Source: Candidatus Aminicenantales bacterium (GTDB lineage: Bacteria > Acidobacteriota > Aminicenantia > Aminicenantales > Saccharicenantaceae). Taken from it: a stretch of 64,000 bases of DNA. A model generated the notes under the pieces. The model did no database searches. It saw only the letters and a list, made by a program, of their open reading frames with translations, and had not been told where the DNA came from. Every line of letters begins with the position of its first letter. The stretch's first letter is position 1. The DNA lies in the NCBI GenBank assembly GCA_049513915.1, contig JBEKVN010000013.1:78265-142264 (forward strand). Reading direction: 5' to 3'. Shown here one piece after another: positions 3,455-52,245 of the stretch. A program made the translations under genes and the position numbers.

Positions 3455-5590
3455 ATGTCATCATCTTCCGTCAACTCAGCGAAGTTCAAGATCCTGGACG
3501 GCCTGTTGAGGCCGAAAACGATCGCCGTGGTCGGCGCTTCGGGCACGCCGGGGAAACTCGGCTACACGGTCCTCAAGAACATTCTCGCCAACGGATACAG
3601 CGGCACCGTATACCCCATCAACCTCAACGACCCCGAGATCCTGGGCCTCAAGGTCTACAAATCCGTCCTGGACGTCCCGGGAGAGATCGACGCGGCCATC
3701 ATCTGCGTTCCGGCCAGGTTATGCGCCCAGGTCACCGAAGAGTGCGGAAAAAAGGGCGTCAAGGGCCTGATCGTCATCACGTCCGGTTTCAGCGAAATCG
3801 GCCGGAAGGACCTGGAGGAGGAGATCGTCCGGATCGCCTTGAGGTATGGGACCCGAGTCCTCGGGCCGAACATCGTCGGCATCATGTCAAACTCGGACAA
3901 GCTCAACGCCTCCTTCGCGCCCTTCCTCCCCTTCCCCGGCAAGCCTTCGCTCGTTTCCCAGAGCGGGGCCCTCATCGTGGCCATGGACGCCGCGACCTAC
4001 TTCCGGCGCGTCGGCTTCGACAAGATGATCTCGGTCGGCAACATGGCCGACGTGGACCTCGCCGACTGCATCGAGTGGCTCGACGCCGACCCGAACACGA
4101 CCTGCATATCCCTCTATATCGAAGGCCTGAAGAACGGCCGGCGCTTCATCGACGCGGCCCGGCGCGTCCGGACGCCCGTGGTGGCCCTCAAGGCCGGGGT
4201 TTCCGCCCACGGCGCGGCGGCGGCGGCCTCGCACACGGGGTCCCTGGCCGGGGCGTCCAAAGTCTACGAGGCCGCCTTCAACCAGGCCGGGATCGTCCAG
4301 GCGGTGGACCTGAACACGCTTTTCGACCGCAGCCTCGCCCTGTCACTCCAACCGGCCATGAGGGGCGACAACCTGTTCGTCCTGACGAACGGCGGCGGCG
4401 TGGGTGTCCTCGCGACAGACGCGGCCGAACGCTTCGGGGTCCCGCTCCAGTTCGCGCCGCCCGACCTCCAGGCCGAGCTTCGCAAGCATATGCCCGAATT
4501 CGGCTCGGCCAAGAACCCGGCCGACCTGACCGGCATGGCCGGAAAAGACTGGTATTATGAATGCGTCAAGGCCATCCTGGCCCATCCCTGGGTGGACGCC
4601 CTGGTTATCCTCTACTGCGAGACGTCGCTCACGGTCCCCATGGAGGTCGCCCAGGCCATCCATAAGAGCATCCTGGATTCGGGCGTGACCGATAAGCCGG
4701 TGGCCATCGCCTTCGTGGGCGGCGAGCAGTCGGAGGAATGCCTGCACTGGTTCATCGAGAAGGGTCTCCCGGCTTACGAAGTGCCGGACAAAGCGGTCAA
4801 CGCGGTCGCCGCCCTGCGCGAGTACTCGAGGATCCGGTCCCTGGTCACCGAGATCCTGCCCGAGCCCGGCGGCAAGTCGCCAGACCAAGCCAGAGAAGTT
4901 ATCGCCGCCGCCCGCGCCCAGGGCCGGACCGTCCTGACCGAGGTCGAGGCCAAAGAGGTCTTTTCCGCCTATGGGCTCCCGGTGGCCGCGACGGTCCTGG
5001 CCCGAACCGAGGACGGGGCGGTCACGGCGGCGAAGAAGATCGGATACCCGGTCGTCATGAAGATCGTCTCGCCCGACATCATCCACAAGTCCGACGCGGG
5101 CGGGGTCAAGGTCAACATCAAGGACGACGGCGGCGCACGCTCCGCTTACCGGGCCATCATGGCCGCCGCCAAGACCTATAAGGCCGACGCGGACATCCAC
5201 GGGATCGCCGTCCAGCCGATGGCGCCGTTCGGGACCGAGGTCATTCTCGGCTCCGTCGACGACCCGAGCTTCGGCCCCACGGTCATGTTCGGGCTGGGGG
5301 GGGTCTTCGTCGAGATCCTCAAGGACGTGACGTTCCGGGTCGCGCCCGTGTCGTCCACGCAGGCCGGCCGCATGCTGGAGGAGATCGAAGGCGCGCCGAT
5401 CCTGGCGGGGGCGCGGGGTGAATCGCCCAGGGACCGGGAGGCGCTCATCCAGCTCATCATGGCCTACTCACGGATGATCCTGGACCTCGAGGACGACATC
5501 GCCGAGTCCGACGCGAACCCGGTCTTCGTGTACGAAAAAGGGAAAGGGCTCGCAGTCGTCGACGCCCGGATCATCCTCAAGAAAAAATAG
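3455..5590 (+). CDS. ADP-forming acetyl-CoA/acyl-CoA synthetase, fused alpha+beta (NDP-forming, ATP-grasp)
   Basis: 711 aa. N-terminal CoA-binding/succinyl-CoA-synthetase-like region (IAVVGASGTPGKLG). C-terminal ATP-grasp beta domain (KEVFSAYGLPVA, VVMKIVSPDIIHKSDAGGVKVNI). Confidence 0.8.
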   Translation: MSSSSVNSAKFKILDGLLRPKTIAVVGASGTPGKLGYTVLKNILANGYSGTVYPINLNDPEILGLKVYKSVLDVPGEIDAAIICVPARLCAQVTEECGKKGVKGLIVITSGFSEIGRKDLEEEIVRIALRYGTRVLGPNIVGIMSNSDKLNASFAPFLPFPGKPSLVSQSGALIVAMDAATYFRRVGFDKMISVGNMADVDLADCIEWLDADPNTTCISLYIEGLKNGRRFIDAARRVRTPVVALKAGVSAHGAAAAASHTGSLAGASKVYEAAFNQAGIVQAVDLNTLFDRSLALSLQPAMRGDNLFVLTNGGGVGVLATDAAERFGVPLQFAPPDLQAELRKHMPEFGSAKNPADLTGMAGKDWYYECVKAILAHPWVDALVILYCETSLTVPMEVAQAIHKSILDSGVTDKPVAIAFVGGEQSEECLHWFIEKGLPAYEVPDKAVNAVAALREYSRIRSLVTEILPEPGGKSPDQAREVIAAARAQGRTVLTEVEAKEVFSAYGLPVAATVLARTEDGAVTAAKKIGYPVVMKIVSPDIIHKSDAGGVKVNIKDDGGARSAYRAIMAAAKTYKADADIHGIAVQPMAPFGTEVILGSVDDPSFGPTVMFGLGGVFVEILKDVTFRVAPVSSTQAGRMLEEIEGAPILAGARGESPRDREALIQLIMAYSRMILDLEDDIAESDANPVFVYEKGKGLAVVDARIILKKK

Positions 5591-5595
5591 CCGCC

Positions 5596-5677
5596 TCTAT
5601 TTCGGTGACACACAACTAAATACACTAATTAGGGACCTGTGCCTATTTCGGTAATTAGTTGTGTGTCACCGAAATTG
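5596..5677. repeat. AT-rich palindromic intergenic element, family A copy 1
   Basis: Perfect 20-bp inverted arms TTTCGGTGACACACAACTAA (5600-5619) and TTAGTTGTGTGTCACCGAAA (5655-5674), plus an internal direct repeat CTATTTCGG. A second copy lies at 21895-21975. GC is far below the window average. Confidence 0.6.
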
Positions 5678-5693: not shown

Positions 5694-6566
5694 TTACTTA
5701 CAACAAAGGTTGTATTTCTTGAGCAAATGGTCCGGCTGATAGGACAGCTTGGCCTTGCGCAGCCCCGGCACGCCCACGTCCTGCTCGCGGTTGATGAAGC
5801 GGAAGCCGGACCACTCGCGGCGCACGAATTCGCGGTTGATCCATTGGGCCAGGCCGGGGAAGGCGGGGTTGGCGATCTCGATCTGAATGAGGGCCGTGTC
5901 GTCGGTTAGCGGCGTGCCGATGGTGAAGGCCTCGACCCTCCCGCCTACGGACACGACCGCGCCCGCGAGGTCGAGCTTCTCGAAGAGGAGCAGGGCCTCG
6001 AGGATGGCTTCCTTTTCGGCCTTCATGTACGGGTCGCCGTTGCCCTTCTCCTCGAACCACTGAGAGAGGAGGCGGCGGCAGTCGTCGGCGTGTTCGCTCC
6101 GGAGCCGCTCGTAGGCGTGGGCGAACGTGGACTCGAACTTCCTGATGCGGTTGCGCTTTCCGTCGTACTTCTTGCCCTTGAGCTCCGCCAGGTCTTCCCG
6201 AAGATAGACGTAATCGAAGTTGTCGCGGTCTTCCTCGATCTTGTAAGGGGCGCCGTACTGCCGGACAAAAGCTTCGGGCACGCGGGACAGGCGCGGGGCG
6301 TGGGTTAGGCAGGTCTCGATCGTCTTTTCGATTTCGTTCTCACCTGCCGGCGGCAGAAAATAGGCCGGCTCGAACGTCGGCTCGACGAGGATGCAGAGGT
6401 TCCCGTTGAGGGCCGTGTAGCGGGGACGCTCGGAATCCTTCCAGATGAAGATGTTGGGGAAGCTCATCTCGCAAACCCCGGACGGGTTCACGTCCAAGTA
6501 CCGATTGACGAGGTCCCGGTCGTCGAAGCCGAGAGGTTTGAATTCGGGATATAGCGGAGGATTCAT
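5694..6566 (-). CDS. DUF2156-family protein (MprF C-terminal-like aminoacyl-transferase fold)
   Basis: Conserved DUF2156-like sequence. Likely start is the ATG at 6566 (MNPPLYPEF), which overlaps the GNAT stop in an ATGA arrangement. The ORF track extends to 6617. Confidence 0.6.
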   Translation of the reverse strand: MNPPLYPEFKPLGFDDRDLVNRYLDVNPSGVCEMSFPNIFIWKDSERPRYTALNGNLCILVEPTFEPAYFLPPAGENEIEKTIETCLTHAPRLSRVPEAFVRQYGAPYKIEEDRDNFDYVYLREDLAELKGKKYDGKRNRIRKFESTFAHAYERLRSEHADDCRRLLSQWFEEKGNGDPYMKAEKEAILEALLLFEKLDLAGAVVSVGGRVEAFTIGTPLTDDTALIQIEIANPAFPGLAQWINREFVRREWSGFRFINREQDVGVPGLRKAKLSYQPDHLLKKYNLCCK

Positions 6567-6976
6567 GACACCTTTCTCACCATGACGGTGCACAGCCGCG
6601 CGTCGCAGCCTTCGCACCAGGCGGTCTTCCGCTTTTCGGGGAACGTCGCGGGGATTTTCCGGGCCTTTTCAAAGCCGCACGTCTTGAAGAAACCCGGGAC
6701 AACGGTCGCCAGGTAAACTTCGCCGGAGGCCGCGTCCATCAGGGCCTCGACCAGGGCCTTGGCGAGGCCCTTCCCCCGGTGCCCGGGGTCGACCCCCAAG
6801 GCGCAAAGCTCCAGGCAATCGGTGTGCTTCTTCAAGCCCACCAGGCCGACCACCCGGCCCTCGGCTTCCGCCACCCAGAGATCATCCCTCTCTATGCCGG
6901 GGTAATCCAAGCCCAGGGTCCGGGCCAGTCCGACGGCGAGGGGGACGTCTTCCGGGACGGTTTTGCGGACGCGCAT
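6563..6976 (-). CDS. GNAT family N-acetyltransferase
   Basis: 137 aa with acetyl-CoA binding motif (GVDPGHRGKGLAKALV). Stop overlaps the start of the downstream DUF2156 gene. Confidence 0.7.
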   Translation of the reverse strand: MRVRKTVPEDVPLAVGLARTLGLDYPGIERDDLWVAEAEGRVVGLVGLKKHTDCLELCALGVDPGHRGKGLAKALVEALMDAASGEVYLATVVPGFFKTCGFEKARKIPATFPEKRKTAWCEGCDARLCTVMVRKVS

Positions 6977-11825: not shown

Positions 11826-11884
11826 GGAAGACCTGGACTTCGCGGAAAGCTTTCGCCGGTCCTTTTGCTAAAGGACAATGTAAT

Positions 11885-11953
11885 ATCTACTTGACATTTT
11901 GTATACTATATATTACATTCATTTGCATAAGCAAAGCAAAGGAGGCTTAGAAG
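11885..11953 (+). promoter_or_regulatory. AT-rich promoter island with TTGACA and TATACT/TATATT boxes and RBS AAAGGAGG
   Basis: About 70 bp at under 30% GC in a 66% GC background. Contains TTGACATTTTGTATACTATATATTACAT. Sits immediately upstream of the membrane-protein/XRE gene pair. Confidence 0.35.
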
Positions 11954-12418
11954 ATGCATCCACAGGTCAAACACGCAAGATTTAATCTGATCGTTTGCGC
12001 CGTCACGGTGGCGGTGACGGCGGCAGCCTATGTGGTGGCATTGGCTTTGGTCGGTCCTCACAGGGCGCGGGGCGCTTTCGGATTCCTGGGATTTCTGGGA
12101 CTGCTCGGCTTGGGCCCGACCTTCTACCGAGAGAAACTGGCCGAAGGCGGCGTGGTCCTTGACGAACGCGACAAGCAGATCGCGGACCGTTCCCGAGTGA
12201 TCGCGTGGAGCGTCACCTGGCTTTACTGGTGTTTGGTATGCATGGGCGTGTGGCTCTGGGTGGCGCTTCGATCGGGCCTTGCGGCCTTGGAGGCCCCGTT
12301 CGTACCCGCGGAATGGCCGCCGTTGGTTTTAATGGCGGCGTTAATTGTCTTTATGATGGCCTGGTCCATATCCATCCTGGTCCATTATCGGCGAGGGGAT
12401 GTGGCGGGCGATGAGTGA
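11954..12418 (+). CDS. small 4-TM membrane protein (DUF2178-like) partnered with XRE regulator
   Basis: Four hydrophobic helices. Stop overlaps the start of the next gene (ATGA). Confidence 0.5.
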   Translation: MHPQVKHARFNLIVCAVTVAVTAAAYVVALALVGPHRARGAFGFLGFLGLLGLGPTFYREKLAEGGVVLDERDKQIADRSRVIAWSVTWLYWCLVCMGVWLWVALRSGLAALEAPFVPAEWPPLVLMAALIVFMMAWSISILVHYRRGDVAGDE

Positions 12419-12716: not shown

Positions 12717-15437
12717 ATGTCTCATCCAACCAGTCTCCGAAAGGCCGTCGCTCCGGCGGCCACGTTGGTTATTTTCCTGAGCTTTGCGATTCTGAGCCCG
12801 GCCGCCGCCCCCGGCGCCGAAATGAAGAAGGCCGACAAGGCCAACTATGAGCTGGCCGCGCGCTTTACCTCGGCCAAGGTCGGGAAGCTCGTCTTCGACA
12901 CTTCCGTCCAGGCCCACTGGCTCGAGACGGGCGACAGGTTCTGGTACAGCTGGGAAACGAGCAAGGGACGGTCGTTTTCCATCGTCGACCCCCTGCGCGC
13001 CACGAAGAGCCCGCTCTTCGACAACGCCCGGATGGCGGCCCTGCTGACCGGGATCGTCCTGACCCCGTATGACTCCCAGCACCTGCCCTTCCGGACCGTG
13101 AAATTCATCGACAAAGACACGGCCCTCCGCCTGGAGCTCGAGGTCCAGAAGGACTCGGACGTCCGCCTCGGGGACAAGATCGTCAAGGCCGGGGACATCG
13201 AGAAGAAGCGCGAAGACGCCAAGAAGGCCAAGGAGGAGGAGGCCAAGACGCAGGAGAAGAAAGACCAAGAGAAGAAGGAGCAGGACAAGAAGGACCTGGA
13301 AAAGAAGGAGCTGGATAAAAAGGACCAGGATAAAAAAGACGCCGATAAGGACAAGGCCAAGGAGCCCGAGAAAAAAACGACCACCCTCTATTTCGAGTAT
13401 CAGCTCGCCACGGGCACGCTGACGCTCCTCCCCGACTACGAGGCGCCGCCCAAGCGGCCCAAATGGGCGTCCGTTTCCCCCGATGAAAAAATCGTCATCT
13501 TCGCCCGCGGCTTCAACCTCTTCATGATGGACGCCGAGAACTTCAAGCTGGCCCAGAAAAAAGCCGACGACGCGGCCATCAAGGAGGTCCAGCTCACGAC
13601 CGACGGCGAGGAGCACTATTCCTACGCCCGTGACCTCAATGAGGAAGATAAGAAGGAGCTCCAGAAGGACGAGAAGGACCGCAAGGATTACCGCGTCCCG
13701 GCCGGCTATATCGTCTGGTCCAAGGACTCGAAAAAGTTCGCCTGTGTCCGCGAGGACGAACGCAAGGTGGGCGACCTCTGGGTTATTAACGTCCTGGCCA
13801 ACCCGCGCCCGACGCTCGAAACCTACCGCTACGCCATGCCGGGCGAGGAAAACCAGGCCCAGCCCGAGCTCCTCGTTTTCGATATCGCGAGCAAGGGCAA
13901 GGTCAAGATCAAGGCCGACGGCTTCAAGGACCAGACCCTGGGGGTCGAGACAGCGCCCCGCCGCAACGTGGACCGCGAGAAGGACTTTCCGCCTCCGTCC
14001 CAGTGGCTGAGCGACACGTCGGACAAGCTCTATTTCGGGCGCCAGAGCCGGGACCTCCACAAGTATGACGTCTGCGTCGCCGACACGGCGACCGGCGACG
14101 TGAAGGTCTTGATCGAGGAGCGCCTGAATACCTATATCGACGTCGAGTCCCTCCGCCTTGTCAACGGCGGCAAAGAAATGGTCTGGTGGTCCGAGCGCGA
14201 CGGCTGGGGCCATTACTACCTCTATGACGGCGACGGCAAGCTCAAGTCGCAGATCACTTCCGGCGAGTTCACCTGCCAGGGGATCGAGGGCGTCGACGAG
14301 AAGACCCGCGTCCTCTACTTCAACGCCTGCGGCCGCGAGCCGAGCGAGGACCCCTACTTTTTCCACCTCTACCGGGTCAACCTGGACGGCACGGGGCTCC
14401 GGCTCCTCAACCCCGGCGACGCCAATCACGGGGCCGACGCCGACGACAACCTGCGCGTGTTCATTGACACGTTCTCGCGCGTCAACACGGCCCCGGCCTC
14501 GGAGCTGCGGGACATGATGGGGAACGTCGTCCTCAAGCTCGAAACGACGGACACGGGCGCTCTTGTCGAGGCCGGCTACAAGTTCCCCGAGCCGTTCAAG
14601 GTCAAGGCCGACGACGGCATCACCGATCTCTACGGCGTCATGTACAAACCCTTCGACTTCGACCCCGCCGTGAAGTATCCGATCATCGCTTACGTCTATC
14701 CGGGCCCCCAGACCGAGAGCGTAACCAAGACCTTCTCGCCCCGGAACGGCAACGTCGCCCTGGCCCAGCTCGGGTTCATCGTCATCGAAGTCGGCAACCG
14801 CGGCGGCAACCCCATGCGCTCGAAGTGGTACCACAACTACGGCTATGGCAACCTCCGCGACTACGGCCTGGCCGACAAGAAGCGGGCCATCGAGGAGCTG
14901 GGCATCAGGTACCCCTATATCGACGCCGACCGGGTCGGCATCTACGGCCACTCGGGCGGCGGTTTCATGACGGCCGCAGCCCTGCTCGTCTATCCCGATT
15001 TCTTCAAGGTCGGCGTGTCCTCGTCCGGAAACCACGAGAACAACATCTACAACCGCTGGTGGAGCGAAAAGCATCACGGCGTCAAGGAAGTCACGGACAA
15101 GGAAGGGAACATCAAGTTCGAGTACAGCATCGAGAAGAACTCCGAGATCGCCAAGAACCTCAAGGGCCACCTCCTGCTCACGACGGGGGACATGGACAAC
15201 AACGTCCACCCGGGGAACACCATCCGGCTGGCCAACGCCCTGATCAAGGCCAATAAGCGCTTCGACTTCTTCCTCTTCCCGGGCCAGCGCCACGGCTACG
15301 GCGACATGAACGACTACTGGTTCTGGATCCGGGCCGACTACTTCGCCAAGTACCTGCTCGGCGATTTCTCCCAGACCGTCGACCTCATCGAACTGCAGAA
15401 GGAGAAAGAGCAAACGGGGGACAAGAAGGGACGGTAG
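12717..15437 (+). CDS. dipeptidyl peptidase IV (S9B prolyl oligopeptidase family) with Lys/Glu-rich insert
   Basis: Signal peptide. DPP4-type N-terminal propeller and a C-terminal alpha/beta hydrolase with catalytic GHSGGG serine motif, later Asp and His (DNNVHP). A 60-aa K/E/D-rich low-complexity insert lies at aa 161-220. Confidence 0.85.
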   Translation: MSHPTSLRKAVAPAATLVIFLSFAILSPAAAPGAEMKKADKANYELAARFTSAKVGKLVFDTSVQAHWLETGDRFWYSWETSKGRSFSIVDPLRATKSPLFDNARMAALLTGIVLTPYDSQHLPFRTVKFIDKDTALRLELEVQKDSDVRLGDKIVKAGDIEKKREDAKKAKEEEAKTQEKKDQEKKEQDKKDLEKKELDKKDQDKKDADKDKAKEPEKKTTTLYFEYQLATGTLTLLPDYEAPPKRPKWASVSPDEKIVIFARGFNLFMMDAENFKLAQKKADDAAIKEVQLTTDGEEHYSYARDLNEEDKKELQKDEKDRKDYRVPAGYIVWSKDSKKFACVREDERKVGDLWVINVLANPRPTLETYRYAMPGEENQAQPELLVFDIASKGKVKIKADGFKDQTLGVETAPRRNVDREKDFPPPSQWLSDTSDKLYFGRQSRDLHKYDVCVADTATGDVKVLIEERLNTYIDVESLRLVNGGKEMVWWSERDGWGHYYLYDGDGKLKSQITSGEFTCQGIEGVDEKTRVLYFNACGREPSEDPYFFHLYRVNLDGTGLRLLNPGDANHGADADDNLRVFIDTFSRVNTAPASELRDMMGNVVLKLETTDTGALVEAGYKFPEPFKVKADDGITDLYGVMYKPFDFDPAVKYPIIAYVYPGPQTESVTKTFSPRNGNVALAQLGFIVIEVGNRGGNPMRSKWYHNYGYGNLRDYGLADKKRAIEELGIRYPYIDADRVGIYGHSGGGFMTAAALLVYPDFFKVGVSSSGNHENNIYNRWWSEKHHGVKEVTDKEGNIKFEYSIEKNSEIAKNLKGHLLLTTGDMDNNVHPGNTIRLANALIKANKRFDFFLFPGQRHGYGDMNDYWFWIRADYFAKYLLGDFSQTVDLIELQKEKEQTGDKKGR

Positions 15438-20997: not shown

Positions 20998-21879
20998 ATG
21001 ATCAGACCTCATCAGAAACCGCTCCGGCCGGTCTGCGCCGCAGGGATCCTCGCCCTGTTGACATTCGCCGCCTGGGATCCGGCCCCTGCCCGGGCCGAAA
21101 GCAAGGGTCTCCTCGGCCCGTGGAAGGCCACGGCGGAATTGAGCTTCGTCGTCACCGGGGGCAACACGGCCACCGCGGCCTTCAGCCTCGCCAACACGCT
21201 CAAGCGGAGCTGGGAGAAGGACGCCCTGACCGTCAAGACCTACCTTCTGAGCAGCCATGCGACGACCATCACGAGGACCGCCGTCGGCACCGAAACGGAT
21301 TTCAGCGTCATCGAGCAGAAAACCGAGCGCCTGGTGGCCGAGAACTTTCTCGTGTCGGGAATGTATGACCACCGCCTCTCCAAGAAGGTGGTCCTCCAGG
21401 TCGGCCTCGGCTGGGACCGCAACCGGTTCGCGGGCCTCGCCAGCCGGGTCATATTCACGGCCGGCACGGGCTACGCCTGGATCGAAACGGACCGGACGCA
21501 GTTCAAGACCGACGGCGCCATGACGTACACCCTTCGCAAGTACTTCGGCCAGCCGGCCACGTCGTTCGCCGGTTTCCGGGCGATCGCCACCTTCGAGCAA
21601 AAGCTCTTCGACTCGTCCGCTTTCGCCAGCCAGTTCATCTTCGACGAAAACCTGAAGAGGACGGTCGATTGGCGTTACGACTGGACGAACTCCGTGACCG
21701 CCTCCATCTCCAAGTCCCTGGCGCTCAAGACGAGCGTCCGGCTTCTGCACGCCCACTTGCCTGCGAACGAAGCCGTCCCGCTCTTTGATCCCGAGGGCCT
21801 CCCGACAGGCCTGACCGTTCCGGTCCCGCTGAAGAAAGTCGACACGCTCTTCACGACCTCGATCGTCATCAACTTTTAG
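20998..21879 (+). CDS. DUF481-family outer-membrane beta-barrel protein
   Basis: Start MIRPHQK carries a signal peptide (ILALLTFAAWDPAPARA). Beta-barrel pattern, C-terminal Phe (VINF). The longer ORF from 20854 overlaps the ROK gene and was rejected. Confidence 0.6.
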   Translation: MIRPHQKPLRPVCAAGILALLTFAAWDPAPARAESKGLLGPWKATAELSFVVTGGNTATAAFSLANTLKRSWEKDALTVKTYLLSSHATTITRTAVGTETDFSVIEQKTERLVAENFLVSGMYDHRLSKKVVLQVGLGWDRNRFAGLASRVIFTAGTGYAWIETDRTQFKTDGAMTYTLRKYFGQPATSFAGFRAIATFEQKLFDSSAFASQFIFDENLKRTVDWRYDWTNSVTASISKSLALKTSVRLLHAHLPANEAVPLFDPEGLPTGLTVPVPLKKVDTLFTTSIVINF

Positions 21880-21894
21880 AGCGGCCGGGAGGTC

Positions 21895-21975
21895 ATAACG
21901 GTGACACATAACTAAATACACTAAATAGGGATATGCGTCTATTTCGGTAATGAGTTATATGTCACCGAAATCAAC
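21895..21975. repeat. AT-rich palindromic intergenic element, family A copy 2
   Basis: CGGTGACACATAACTAAATACACTAAATAGGGA...CTATTTCGGTAATGAGTTATATGTCACCGAAAT. Roughly 85% identical to 5596-5677 with the same arm/core layout. Confidence 0.6.
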
Positions 21976-22072
21976 CGGACCGGGTTTGACCGGGCCCGGG
22001 ATTCTTAGTAAAATACTAAGGAATGATGATCGACTTTAGCGGGAAGAGTCTCACAGGAGGAAGGGGGGTGTC

Positions 22073-22504
22073 ATGAAAAAACGATACTGGCGCTGCAACA
22101 TCTGCAACGACGTTCACTACGGAATCGCCCCGCCCGAGCTTTGCCCGACGTGCCAGGCGCTGAACGCCTACGCCGAGATCACGGCCGATGAAGCTCGCAA
22201 GTTCCTGGGCGGCGGCCCCGACGTGACCTTCACGCCGGCCGATTTCCGGCAGGCCATCGAACGGTTCACCTCCGGGAACGAGTTCATGGTCAACCCGGAC
22301 CCGGGCAAGGTCGAAACCCTGGTCGAGGGGATCTTCGAGAATGAGAAAAACCACGGGTTCAAATACTGCCCTTGCCGCCTGCGCACCAAGGACTGGGAAG
22401 AGGATTTGAAACTCGTCTGCCCCTGCAACTTCAAGATCCACGAAACCTATCGCGGACTTCCGAACGGCGAATGCTGGTGCGGACTCTTTGTCAGGAGGAC
22501 ATAA
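22073..22504 (+). CDS. rubredoxin-like domain fused to ferredoxin:thioredoxin reductase catalytic-subunit-like domain
   Basis: N-terminal CxxC...CPxC rubredoxin knuckles (RCNICNDVHYG...CPTCQA). C-terminal CPC-x14-CPC-x15-CWC resembles the FTR catalytic CPC..CPC..CHC arrangement. RBS AGGAGG. Confidence 0.6.
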   Translation: MKKRYWRCNICNDVHYGIAPPELCPTCQALNAYAEITADEARKFLGGGPDVTFTPADFRQAIERFTSGNEFMVNPDPGKVETLVEGIFENEKNHGFKYCPCRLRTKDWEEDLKLVCPCNFKIHETYRGLPNGECWCGLFVRRT

Positions 22505-40990: not shown

Positions 40991-41091
40991 AAGAATGGGG
41001 ACGAAGAATGGGGACGGTCCTGGTTTTCCATCCGCGGCCCAACCGGGATTTCTCTCGCCTATCCTAGAAAACCAGGACCGTCCCCATTTTC
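40991..41091. repeat. family B hairpin element copy 1 (25-bp inverted arms GAATGGGGACGGTCCTGGTTTTC / GAAAACCAGGACCGTCCCCATTTTC)
   Basis: Arms at 41003-41028 and 41067-41091 around a 38-nt loop. A partial tandem duplicate GAAGAATGGGGAC precedes the left arm. Confidence 0.6.
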
Positions 41092-45112: not shown

Positions 45113-45202
45113 GGAAAATGGGGACGGTCCTGTTTTTCCGGCTGCATCCCAAGCGAGACTTCTCTTGCTTATATAAGGAAAAACAGGACCGTCCCCATTT
45201 TC
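45113..45202. repeat. family B hairpin element copy 2 (arms GGAAAATGGGGACGGTCCTGTTTTTCC / GGAAAAACAGGACCGTCCCCATTTTC)
   Basis: Arms at 45113-45139 and 45177-45202 around a 37-nt loop similar to copy 1. Preceded by TTGAAT-17-TATAAG at 45075-45103. Confidence 0.6.
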
Positions 45203-51983: not shown

Positions 51984-52024
51984 GCGCAGGCGGAGCGGCG
52001 CGCCGGACTTTTTTCCCCAACCAC

Positions 52025-52053
52025 TTGAATTTCCGGAAAAATGGGGGTATCAT
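52025..52053 (+). promoter_or_regulatory. sigma70-like promoter TTGAAT-17-TATCAT upstream of metK leader
   Basis: -35 at 52025-52030 and -10 at 52048-52053. Confidence 0.35.
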
Positions 52054-52061
52054 TTTTTTTT

Positions 52062-52245
52062 ACATCAGGAGAGGCTCGATCCTAACCGATCGGACCCGGC
52101 AACCTGGGGCGGACACCCGAGGTGCTCACTCGCCAGCGGCGAGGATGTGGTCGCGAAAGCGAACGCGGCAACCAAGTGTCCAACGGCCGACAAACCCGCC
52201 TTCCTGATGATAGAGAGGTGGGTTTTTTTGCGGCCGCGCATTGAC
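52062..52245 (+). promoter_or_regulatory. SAM riboswitch (SAM-I clan: SAM-I/SAM-IV-like) in metK 5-prime leader
   Basis: P1 strands CATCAGGAG (52064-52072) and CTTCCTGATG (52200-52209). Conserved core AGGAGAGGC...GGACCCGGCAACC resembles SAM-I ...AGAGAGGCGGAGGGA...GCCCGGCAACC. Followed by a hairpin plus T7 tract. metK lies directly downstream. Confidence 0.55.
52191..52228 (+). terminator. putative riboswitch expression-platform terminator (ACCCGCC...GGTGGGT + TTTTTTT)
   Basis: 7-bp stem with one G-U around a 16-nt loop, overlapping the P1 3-prime strand, followed by a seven-T run at 52222-52228. Confidence 0.3.

Follow-up and report, generated by a model that had tools for sequence, protein, structure and literature searches.

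A probable REPIN-like doublet between the DUF481 and rubredoxin-FTR genes of an Aminicenantales genome, built from units that flank a Y1 transposase gene in related genomes

To our knowledge, nearly all work on REPIN-RAYT systems has been done in Gammaproteobacteria. These systems have been argued to be ancient, vertically inherited replicators and not ordinary selfish DNA. The described examples used here for comparison are those of P. fluorescens and E. coli (Nunvar, 2010; Bertels & Rainey, 2011, PMC3116915; Ton-Hoang, 2012; Messing, 2012, PMC3479197). A further group, the TIRtrons or TIRYT, comprises RAYT-like genes with long inverted repeats unrelated to the GTAG REPs. The repeats make up families of moderate abundance, with singles, dimers and clusters, and among these transposases it is an Acidobacteria group that the authors find to be delimited most sharply (Di Nocera, De Gregorio & Rocco, 2013, PMC3733652). 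A literature search returned no paper combining RAYT or REPIN with Aminicenantes, and the single occurrence of the core motif of the element described below was in a paper on human genetics with no bearing on the subject. Elements of this kind are well known; the example is new for a poorly studied phylum, in which it is not yet described.

The stretch of 64 kb analysed here (the window) carries two copies of an inverted doublet, named copy 1 and copy 2 (Table 1). Copy 2 had been predicted at 21895–21975. The copy itself was recovered, and its exact ends were moved to those given in the table on the basis of conservation across the family. The element is one of five AT-rich islands, with a G+C content of 36% against 63.6% for the window, and forms a long imperfect palindrome with an interrupted outer stem and with the spacer as its most divergent segment in comparison with copy 1 and with the orthologous copies. 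The two core strings of the original prediction were found exactly at 21900–21931 and 21939–21971, each with one other match in the window; both of these fell in copy 1 (5604–5635 with two mismatches and 5643–5675 with three), and shuffled sequences gave a match in 0 of 100 trials. The plus-strand stop codon expected within about 15 bp upstream is the TAG of the DUF481 gene, 14 nt before the first conserved base of copy 2, and on its other side the copy lies immediately 5' of the -35 box of the rubredoxin-FTR promoter. Copy 1 had also been placed near a stop, and the stop codon at 5588–5590 indeed ends 7 nt before it.

Table 1. Coordinates of the two doublets and their neighbours in the window, and of stuttered unit ends at related loci.
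Feature	Position	Strand	Details
Copy 2, whole doublet	21894–21972 (79 nt)		Borders from family-wide conservation
Left REP-like unit of copy 2, variant a	21894–21927	+	CATAAC-GGTGACACATAACTAAATACACTAAATA; family profile
Spacer/loop of copy 2	21928–21938 (11 nt)	+	GGGATATGCGT; least conserved part, compact 67-nt class alignment
Right REP-like unit of copy 2, variant b, inverted	21939–21972	-	Reverse complement GATTTC-GGTGACATATAACTCATTACCGAAATAG
DUF481 outer-membrane protein gene	20998–21879	+	Source-assembly call; stop TAG 21877–21879
Sigma-70-like promoter of the rubredoxin-FTR gene	21986–22014	+	TTGACC-17-TAAAAT; consensus scan, 10/12 matches
Rubredoxin-FTR (rubredoxin/ferredoxin-thioredoxin-reductase) gene	22073–22504	+	
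Copy 1, compact doublet	5598–5676 (79 nt)	+	88% identical to copy 2 (over aligned 73 nt, repeat search of the window)
ADP-forming acyl-CoA synthetase-like gene, convergent neighbour of copy 1	3455–5590	+	Pfam
LPG_synthase_C gene, convergent neighbour of copy 1	5694–6617	-	Pfam
Stuttered unit ends	L185:3000–3125		
Stuttered unit ends	L040:4510–4545		
Stuttered unit ends	L085:720–735		

The folding of copy 2 as RNA was well beyond that of shuffled sequences on either strand (z = -6.1), and as DNA it gave -13.9 kcal/mol (z = -5.5 against shuffles). When the units were folded separately, the left one (variant a) had no fold of its own (0 kcal/mol) and the right one formed an 8-bp stem, ATTTCGGT/ACCGAAAT, of -5.5 kcal/mol. 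An intrinsic terminator was rejected; downstream of the AT-rich hairpin comes GAAATCAACCGG, with no T-run, and the terminator scan did not call copy 2. An integron attC site or a CRISPR repeat was also rejected on reading the sequence, which has no core sites, no regular array and housekeeping neighbours. If the element were a gene for a small structured RNA, or acted in cis as a regulatory RNA of the rubredoxin-FTR gene, this would account for the strong fold on both strands and for the location upstream of a gene. The window, however, gave no Rfam match to the element at the gathering score, the region 21850–22080 gave none up to E = 1, the element lies upstream of the promoter and outside the leader, and its relatives are dispersed beside unrelated genes in either orientation with no excess of covariation, which makes such an RNA scarcely credible.

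The outer stem of copy 1 is perfect, with 21 consecutive pairs, and its folds are stronger (RNA z of about -9 on either strand; DNA -25.6 kcal/mol, z = -10.9), leaving copy 2 as the weaker hairpin of the pair. The arm substitutions of copy 2 relative to copy 1 had been described as non-compensatory. This holds for two of the three differences, as 21959 G-to-A gives a C·A mismatch and 21952 T-to-G an A·G mismatch, each breaking a pair; it fails for the third, in which 21909 C-to-T and 21957 G-to-A are the two sides of one pair that changed from C-G to T-A. The right-arm variant of copy 2, GGTGACATATAACT (read inward), recurs in the family, and this ATAT variant of the right unit is also that of the units around the transposase gene in L185/L186, which are closely related populations. 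The element had been taken for a mobile or decaying repeat: the dispersed family described below is of mobile type, whereas random decay is not in keeping with GGTGACATATAACT being a recurrent family variant. Short-word BLAST of the 64-kb window and of a further 9 kb of its contig revealed no third copy, so that the contig has two copies in 73 kb. The additional 9 kb lie beyond window position 1 in ENA ERZ27250059 contig k141_167633 (84.6 kb), which is 100% identical to the window.

Some other features of the window were recorded. A second, unrelated family of inverted doublets, GAAAATGGGGACGGTCCTGKTTTTCC ... GGAAAAMCAGGACCGTCCCCATTTTC, with arms of about 26 nt and spacers of 37–40 nt, occurs at 41003–41091 and 45114–45202, and its two copies bracket roughly 4 kb with repeated LPNG-type (peptidase M16-like) genes. 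The longest AT-rich island (11856–11959) lies upstream of a DUF2178/HTH gene pair and contains a near-consensus promoter-like TTGACA...TATACT and an internal symmetry, TATATATTACATTCATTTGCATAAGCAAAGCAAAGGAGG. Another AT-rich island (52018–52072) is directly followed by a SAM-I/IV riboswitch aptamer on the plus strand (52057–52185), which scored 42.2 bits against a gathering score of 41.1. Imperfect tandem repeats of 15 nt and 33 nt, GAG/AAG-rich and hence Lys/Glu-rich in coding, span 13197–13678 within a 906-aa DPPIV/peptidase S9 gene (12717–15437).

The distribution of the family was examined by scanning a degenerate arm pattern, GGTGACAYAYAACTMAWTAC, against one genome per species. More than 102 stretches were matched, which is a lower bound, and nearly all of them were in MAGs of Candidatus Aminicenantes or Aminicenantales; among the loci listed, these account for 99 of 102, from peat, soil, permafrost and lake sediment. 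The match in L061, labelled actinobacterium (46% G+C), was discarded as a chance hit in which the flanks of the unit are absent. Two loci of 66–67% G+C, L031 and L038, are genuine family members in a MAG labelled Eubacteriales, a taxonomic label that may be wrong. At a tolerance of up to four mismatches the listed loci contain at least 207 arms, of which 43 are unpaired and the rest form 82 inverted doublets, and as many as 18 doublets per MAG were counted among them, again a lower bound. The family occurs as single 34-nt units, which are true singles and common, as inverted doublets, and as inverted units around a transposase gene.

A profile of 205 distinct arms defined a unit of 34 nt with sharp borders, conserved from -6 to +28 relative to GGTGAC; profile positions 1–20 were chosen by the search pattern, while the flanks are free of that selection and show no conservation past -6 or +28. 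The unit consensus was TAWTWC-GGTGACACACAACTAAATACACTTAATT, in which the GTAG or CGTC tag of classical REPs is absent, and a second unit variant ends in ...AACTAATTACCGAAAT. Across the family, variant b forms its own 8-bp stem of -4 to -5.5 kcal/mol and variant a alone remains unfolded. The doublets span 62–231 nt from outer end to outer end, with spacers of 2 to about 170 nt. The modal doublet is of 67 nt (13 copies) and belongs to the SPRUCE 141/645 lineage, with one in MFD03726.bin.3.73; both window copies are of this compact class, in which a variant-a unit stands opposite an inverted variant-b unit. Its loop consensus, TAGGGACCTGTGCCTA, is common to copies at unrelated loci, which indicates that the whole 79-nt doublet was replicated as one unit. 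Beyond the compact class, copies at unrelated loci were found in only two classes, of 86–91 nt and 227–231 nt. The long-spacer doublets of the MFD05942/MFD02222/Chersky lineage have unique spacers and are mostly orthologous between those genomes, and the fixation of many of them at orthologous loci in three related MAGs, with no copies at unrelated loci, suggested that mobility is low or limited to certain subfamilies. The doublets at L031:5131–5357 and L038:3569–3799 have unrelated flanks and a common GC-rich interior of about 150–190 nt (95% identity) with no Rfam match, which we read as non-coding cargo of greater length that has moved between these arms.

Whether all copies abut stop codons, as an insertion-site preference would suggest, had been proposed as a check. 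It was found that 79 of the 102 element-facing gene 3' ends lie within 30 nt of the element or inside it, with gene ends called by a crude G+C-by-codon-position caller and "inside" meaning the first 22 nt of the element. The unit supplies stop codons of its own, namely TAA in the flank and again in AACTAAA, and TGA within GGTGAC. The copies are extragenic, with doublets in convergent, tandem and divergent gaps and some copies in divergent promoter regions. This closeness to stop codons supports the proposed idea, and a target preference and the survival of harmless insertions account for it alike. In tandem gaps the element was nearer to the upstream stop in 25 of 44, a test that is invalid because the ORF caller extends starts into the element. 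The pairing of the arms was also evaluated in 15 compact copies, where 89.4% of cells were paired against 89.0% in the shuffle control and double-sided changes numbered 4 against 3.3; a count no higher than the control lends no support to selection on pairing. Left-arm and right-arm variants correlate at some positions, a correlation confounded by genome-specific variants. The earlier view that RNA pairing is not under strong selection agrees with this result and with the lack of an Rfam match.

The history of the site was followed in 80 orthologous loci from JGI metagenomes, which were fetched with the rubredoxin-FTR protein. The order DUF481, FTR and the promoter block are kept in most of these 80 loci, and the TTGACC...TAAAAT block is conserved at loci both with and without the element. 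The element is present in L077, which equals L109 (SPRUCE 645 type; FTR 83% identical to the window in amino acids, flanks 82–84% identical in nucleotides), and in L111 (FTR 82%). The site is empty in L105 (FTR 94%, DUF481 C-terminus 98%), in L107 (FTR 85%) and in all the more distant loci with lower FTR identity. L106 (Ga0209777_10027531; FTR 92%) carries a footprint, ATAAC-GGTGACACC-GAAAT, about 100–120 nt upstream of the FTR start at 330 and at the exact orthologous position of copy 2. This footprint consists of both element ends joined across a CAC direct repeat, which is the expected product of slippage across the hairpin with deletion of the element interior. It places the element in the common ancestor of the window and L106, with a loss in L105. 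The copies in L077 and L111 may either share the insertion of the window or represent gains of their own in the same 100-nt gap. Comparison of filled and empty sites showed no target-site duplication, in line with what Y1 transposases would leave. Among the three occupied sites, three double-sided changes keep or restore pairing (C-G to T-A in the window; A-T to C-G in L111, together with a left-arm A-to-C change re-pairing with a shared right-arm G) and three single changes break it. In 377 kb of orthologous loci the arms were found in L109 and L111 only, which indicates that the family is confined to a subclade. Different long palindromes (GGGGTCAAATCT..., GGGGTCAGGTCTAC...) occupy the DUF481–FTR intergenic slot in L112, L114 and L115, and the L114 arm fits GGGGWSAS, a motif reported for some TIRYT-flanking repeats by Di Nocera et al (2013, PMC3733652).

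The position of copy 2 raised the possibility of an element that mainly serves the host as an mRNA 3' hairpin, which would stabilise or end the DUF481 transcript, insulate this transcript from the downstream promoter and be kept by selection whatever its origin. The location 14 nt past a stop and directly before a conserved -35 box, the occupation of the same site in lineages at about 83% identity and the concentration of family members at gene 3' ends are in its favour. So is the identity between the window and L077, which is 82% in the element against about 70% at synonymous sites (third codon positions) and 52% in the rest of the spacer, the flanking coding sequence being 83–86% identical. 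E. coli REPs stabilise upstream mRNA, which also counts for such a role. Against it, the hairpin has no T-run and the terminator scan was negative, the closest relatives have no element (L105) or have its interior deleted (L106) with the genes intact, covariation is no higher than in the control, and some copies lie in divergent promoter regions. Service to the host as the main explanation was therefore considered unlikely.

In five MAGs (L040, L085, L093, L096 and L067), inverted units 855–914 nt apart enclose a single ORF of 227–243 aa, and an equal arrangement was found in L185/L186, ENA and JGI contigs recovered through protein P0007 and its cluster. The ORF matched Pfam Y1_Tnp (1.4e-11); its best NCBIfam model was REP_Tyr_transpos (NF047646) with 58.7 and 53.8 bits, under the cut-off of 80, the IS200 model gave 18.6, and the sole PDB match was E. 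coli TnpA-REP (4ER8). HVH, WQGRF and the catalytic Tyr of RYVxxNPVRA did not vary among seven sequences, which included homologues from Omnitrophota and Elusimicrobia. About 3,800 homologues were obtained at E below 1e-5, and the source annotation is just "transposase". On this evidence the ORF encodes an HUH/Tyr (Y1, IS200-like) transposase, whose best matches are the REP-associated tyrosine transposases. A 187-aa "truncated" transposase was set aside, being merely another start-codon call on the identical ORF.

The gene order tRNA-Met, transposase, 3' end of rpoD-dnaG is the same in every transposase locus, and one match per MAG was obtained among the fetched blocks; there is apparently one copy of the transposase gene, at a fixed place in the chromosome. 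This constant place between tRNA-Met and rpoD-dnaG fits a resident, vertically inherited gene, unlike an insertion sequence. The unit core has stayed identical although the transposases have diverged, being only 58–60% identical between genomes (down to 58%), and single copies persist at orthologous sites across species. Neither the window nor a further 9 kb of its contig contains a transposase gene; such a gene is present in the most similar populations, and the contigs that matched come from samples other than ERZ27250059. Directly upstream of a transposase-flanking unit, partial copies of the outer end of the unit were seen in a stuttered arrangement (GATAATTACGGTGAC three times, for example; Table 1), and contigs more than 99% identical (L196 versus L185/L189) differ in whether they have a 37-nt block of such partial ends. 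Repeated cleavage and rejoining could have left this block and the stuttered ends behind, as could slippage during replication.

A classical MITE, that is, an internally deleted derivative of a DDE-transposase insertion sequence with GGTGACACACAACT ends that moved as double-stranded DNA via terminal inverted repeats, would be small, AT-rich and present in many copies, and the 34-nt arms could be taken for its terminal inverted repeats. Target-site duplications, however, were absent both from the filled and empty sites and from the sequences next to 205 arms, the one coding element that has these ends carries a Y1/HUH transposase, and single units, which are unusual for MITEs, are common here. 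We therefore regard a MITE as very improbable.

The many-copy singles and doublets, together with the same units placed inverted around a Y1 gene, make copy 2 best read as a REPIN-like doublet of a RAYT- or "TIRYT"-type system whose units also flank a Y1 transposase gene in relatives, with a probability of roughly 0.75. On its side are the family itself, the anatomy of its units, their link to the transposase gene, the constant position of that gene, the replication of the compact class as a unit, the presence or absence of the element at the orthologous site, the closeness of copies to gene 3' ends, and the 37-nt polymorphism beside the transposase gene. The transposase score below the NCBIfam cut-off, the lack of a GTAG/CGTC tag, the hairpin-less variant a, the low or restricted mobility of the long-spacer doublets and the failure to link a transposase gene to the window's own contig or sample count against this reading. 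By analogy with E. coli TnpA-REP and IS200/IS605, the transposase would recognise the unit or the doublet hairpin on single-stranded DNA, and its catalytic tyrosine would cut, followed by strand transfer or rejoining (PMC3479197). The non-coding doublets would then be moved and spread in trans by the transposase, without target-site duplications; any benefit to the host is, like this movement, an inference. Copy 2 would be an old insertion, vertically inherited or re-acquired, harmless between a stop codon and the next promoter, and it may double as an mRNA 3' hairpin. Since the unit is without GTAG and variant a without a hairpin, the transposase would read the invariant 20-nt core or the doublet hairpin. 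We put forward with reserve, at a little under even odds, that the units and the transposase form a REPIN-RAYT-type partnership not described before, in an uncultured lineage that lies outside Proteobacteria, with a GTAG-less unit and one variant without its own hairpin.

A clear example from Aminicenantes would broaden the taxonomic base of the ancient-replicator argument. The lineage offers a fixed transposase locus, orthologous copies, losses with footprints, several doublet subfamilies and different recognition features, and the REPIN-like reading, if true, would provide a natural test of whether REPIN-RAYT-type systems are long-term, vertically inherited residents in bacteria generally. 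In practical terms, it would account for AT-rich hairpins at which MAG assemblies of the clade break and which mislead gene calling there, the latter because the unit supplies stop and start codons. Where the window alone is concerned, the result is an ordinary one: a non-coding copy of a mobile element in an intergenic slot where it is tolerated.

When compared with the REPIN-RAYT systems of P. fluorescens and E. coli, the Aminicenantes family is similar in its short, many-copy extragenic units that occur as singles and as inverted doublets folding into long hairpins, in the same units being inverted around an HUH/Tyr transposase gene at a fixed chromosomal position, in the lack of target-site duplications, in copies that are mostly downstream of genes, and in persistence at orthologous sites. 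It differs in that its units have no GTAG tag and are AT-rich in a GC-rich genome, one variant having no hairpin of its own, in doublet spacers of 2 to about 170 nt, in a protein of about 230 aa, against 165 aa for E. coli TnpA-REP, that scores under the curated RAYT cut-off, and in its host, which is outside the Gammaproteobacteria. With IS200/IS605 elements and their palindrome-associated miniature derivatives it shares the Y1/HUH domain, the dependence on hairpins and the lack of target-site duplications. Those insertion sequences, however, are autonomous, occur in multiple copies and have two ends that are not inverted repeats of one another, whereas the Aminicenantes gene stays in one conserved place while the non-coding units have multiplied, and the NCBIfam IS200 model gave only 18.6 bits. 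The TIRtron/TIRYT variant has in common with it a RAYT-like gene within long inverted repeats unrelated to the GTAG REPs, and repeats dispersed as a family; the length of the protein (about 230 aa, where the E. coli one has 165 aa) is suggestive. The motif GGTGAC has 0 occurrences in PMC3733652, and the Aminicenantes genomes fall outside that survey. Judged by anatomy, the Aminicenantes system would seem to correspond most closely to the TIRtron/TIRYT variant of Di Nocera et al (2013).
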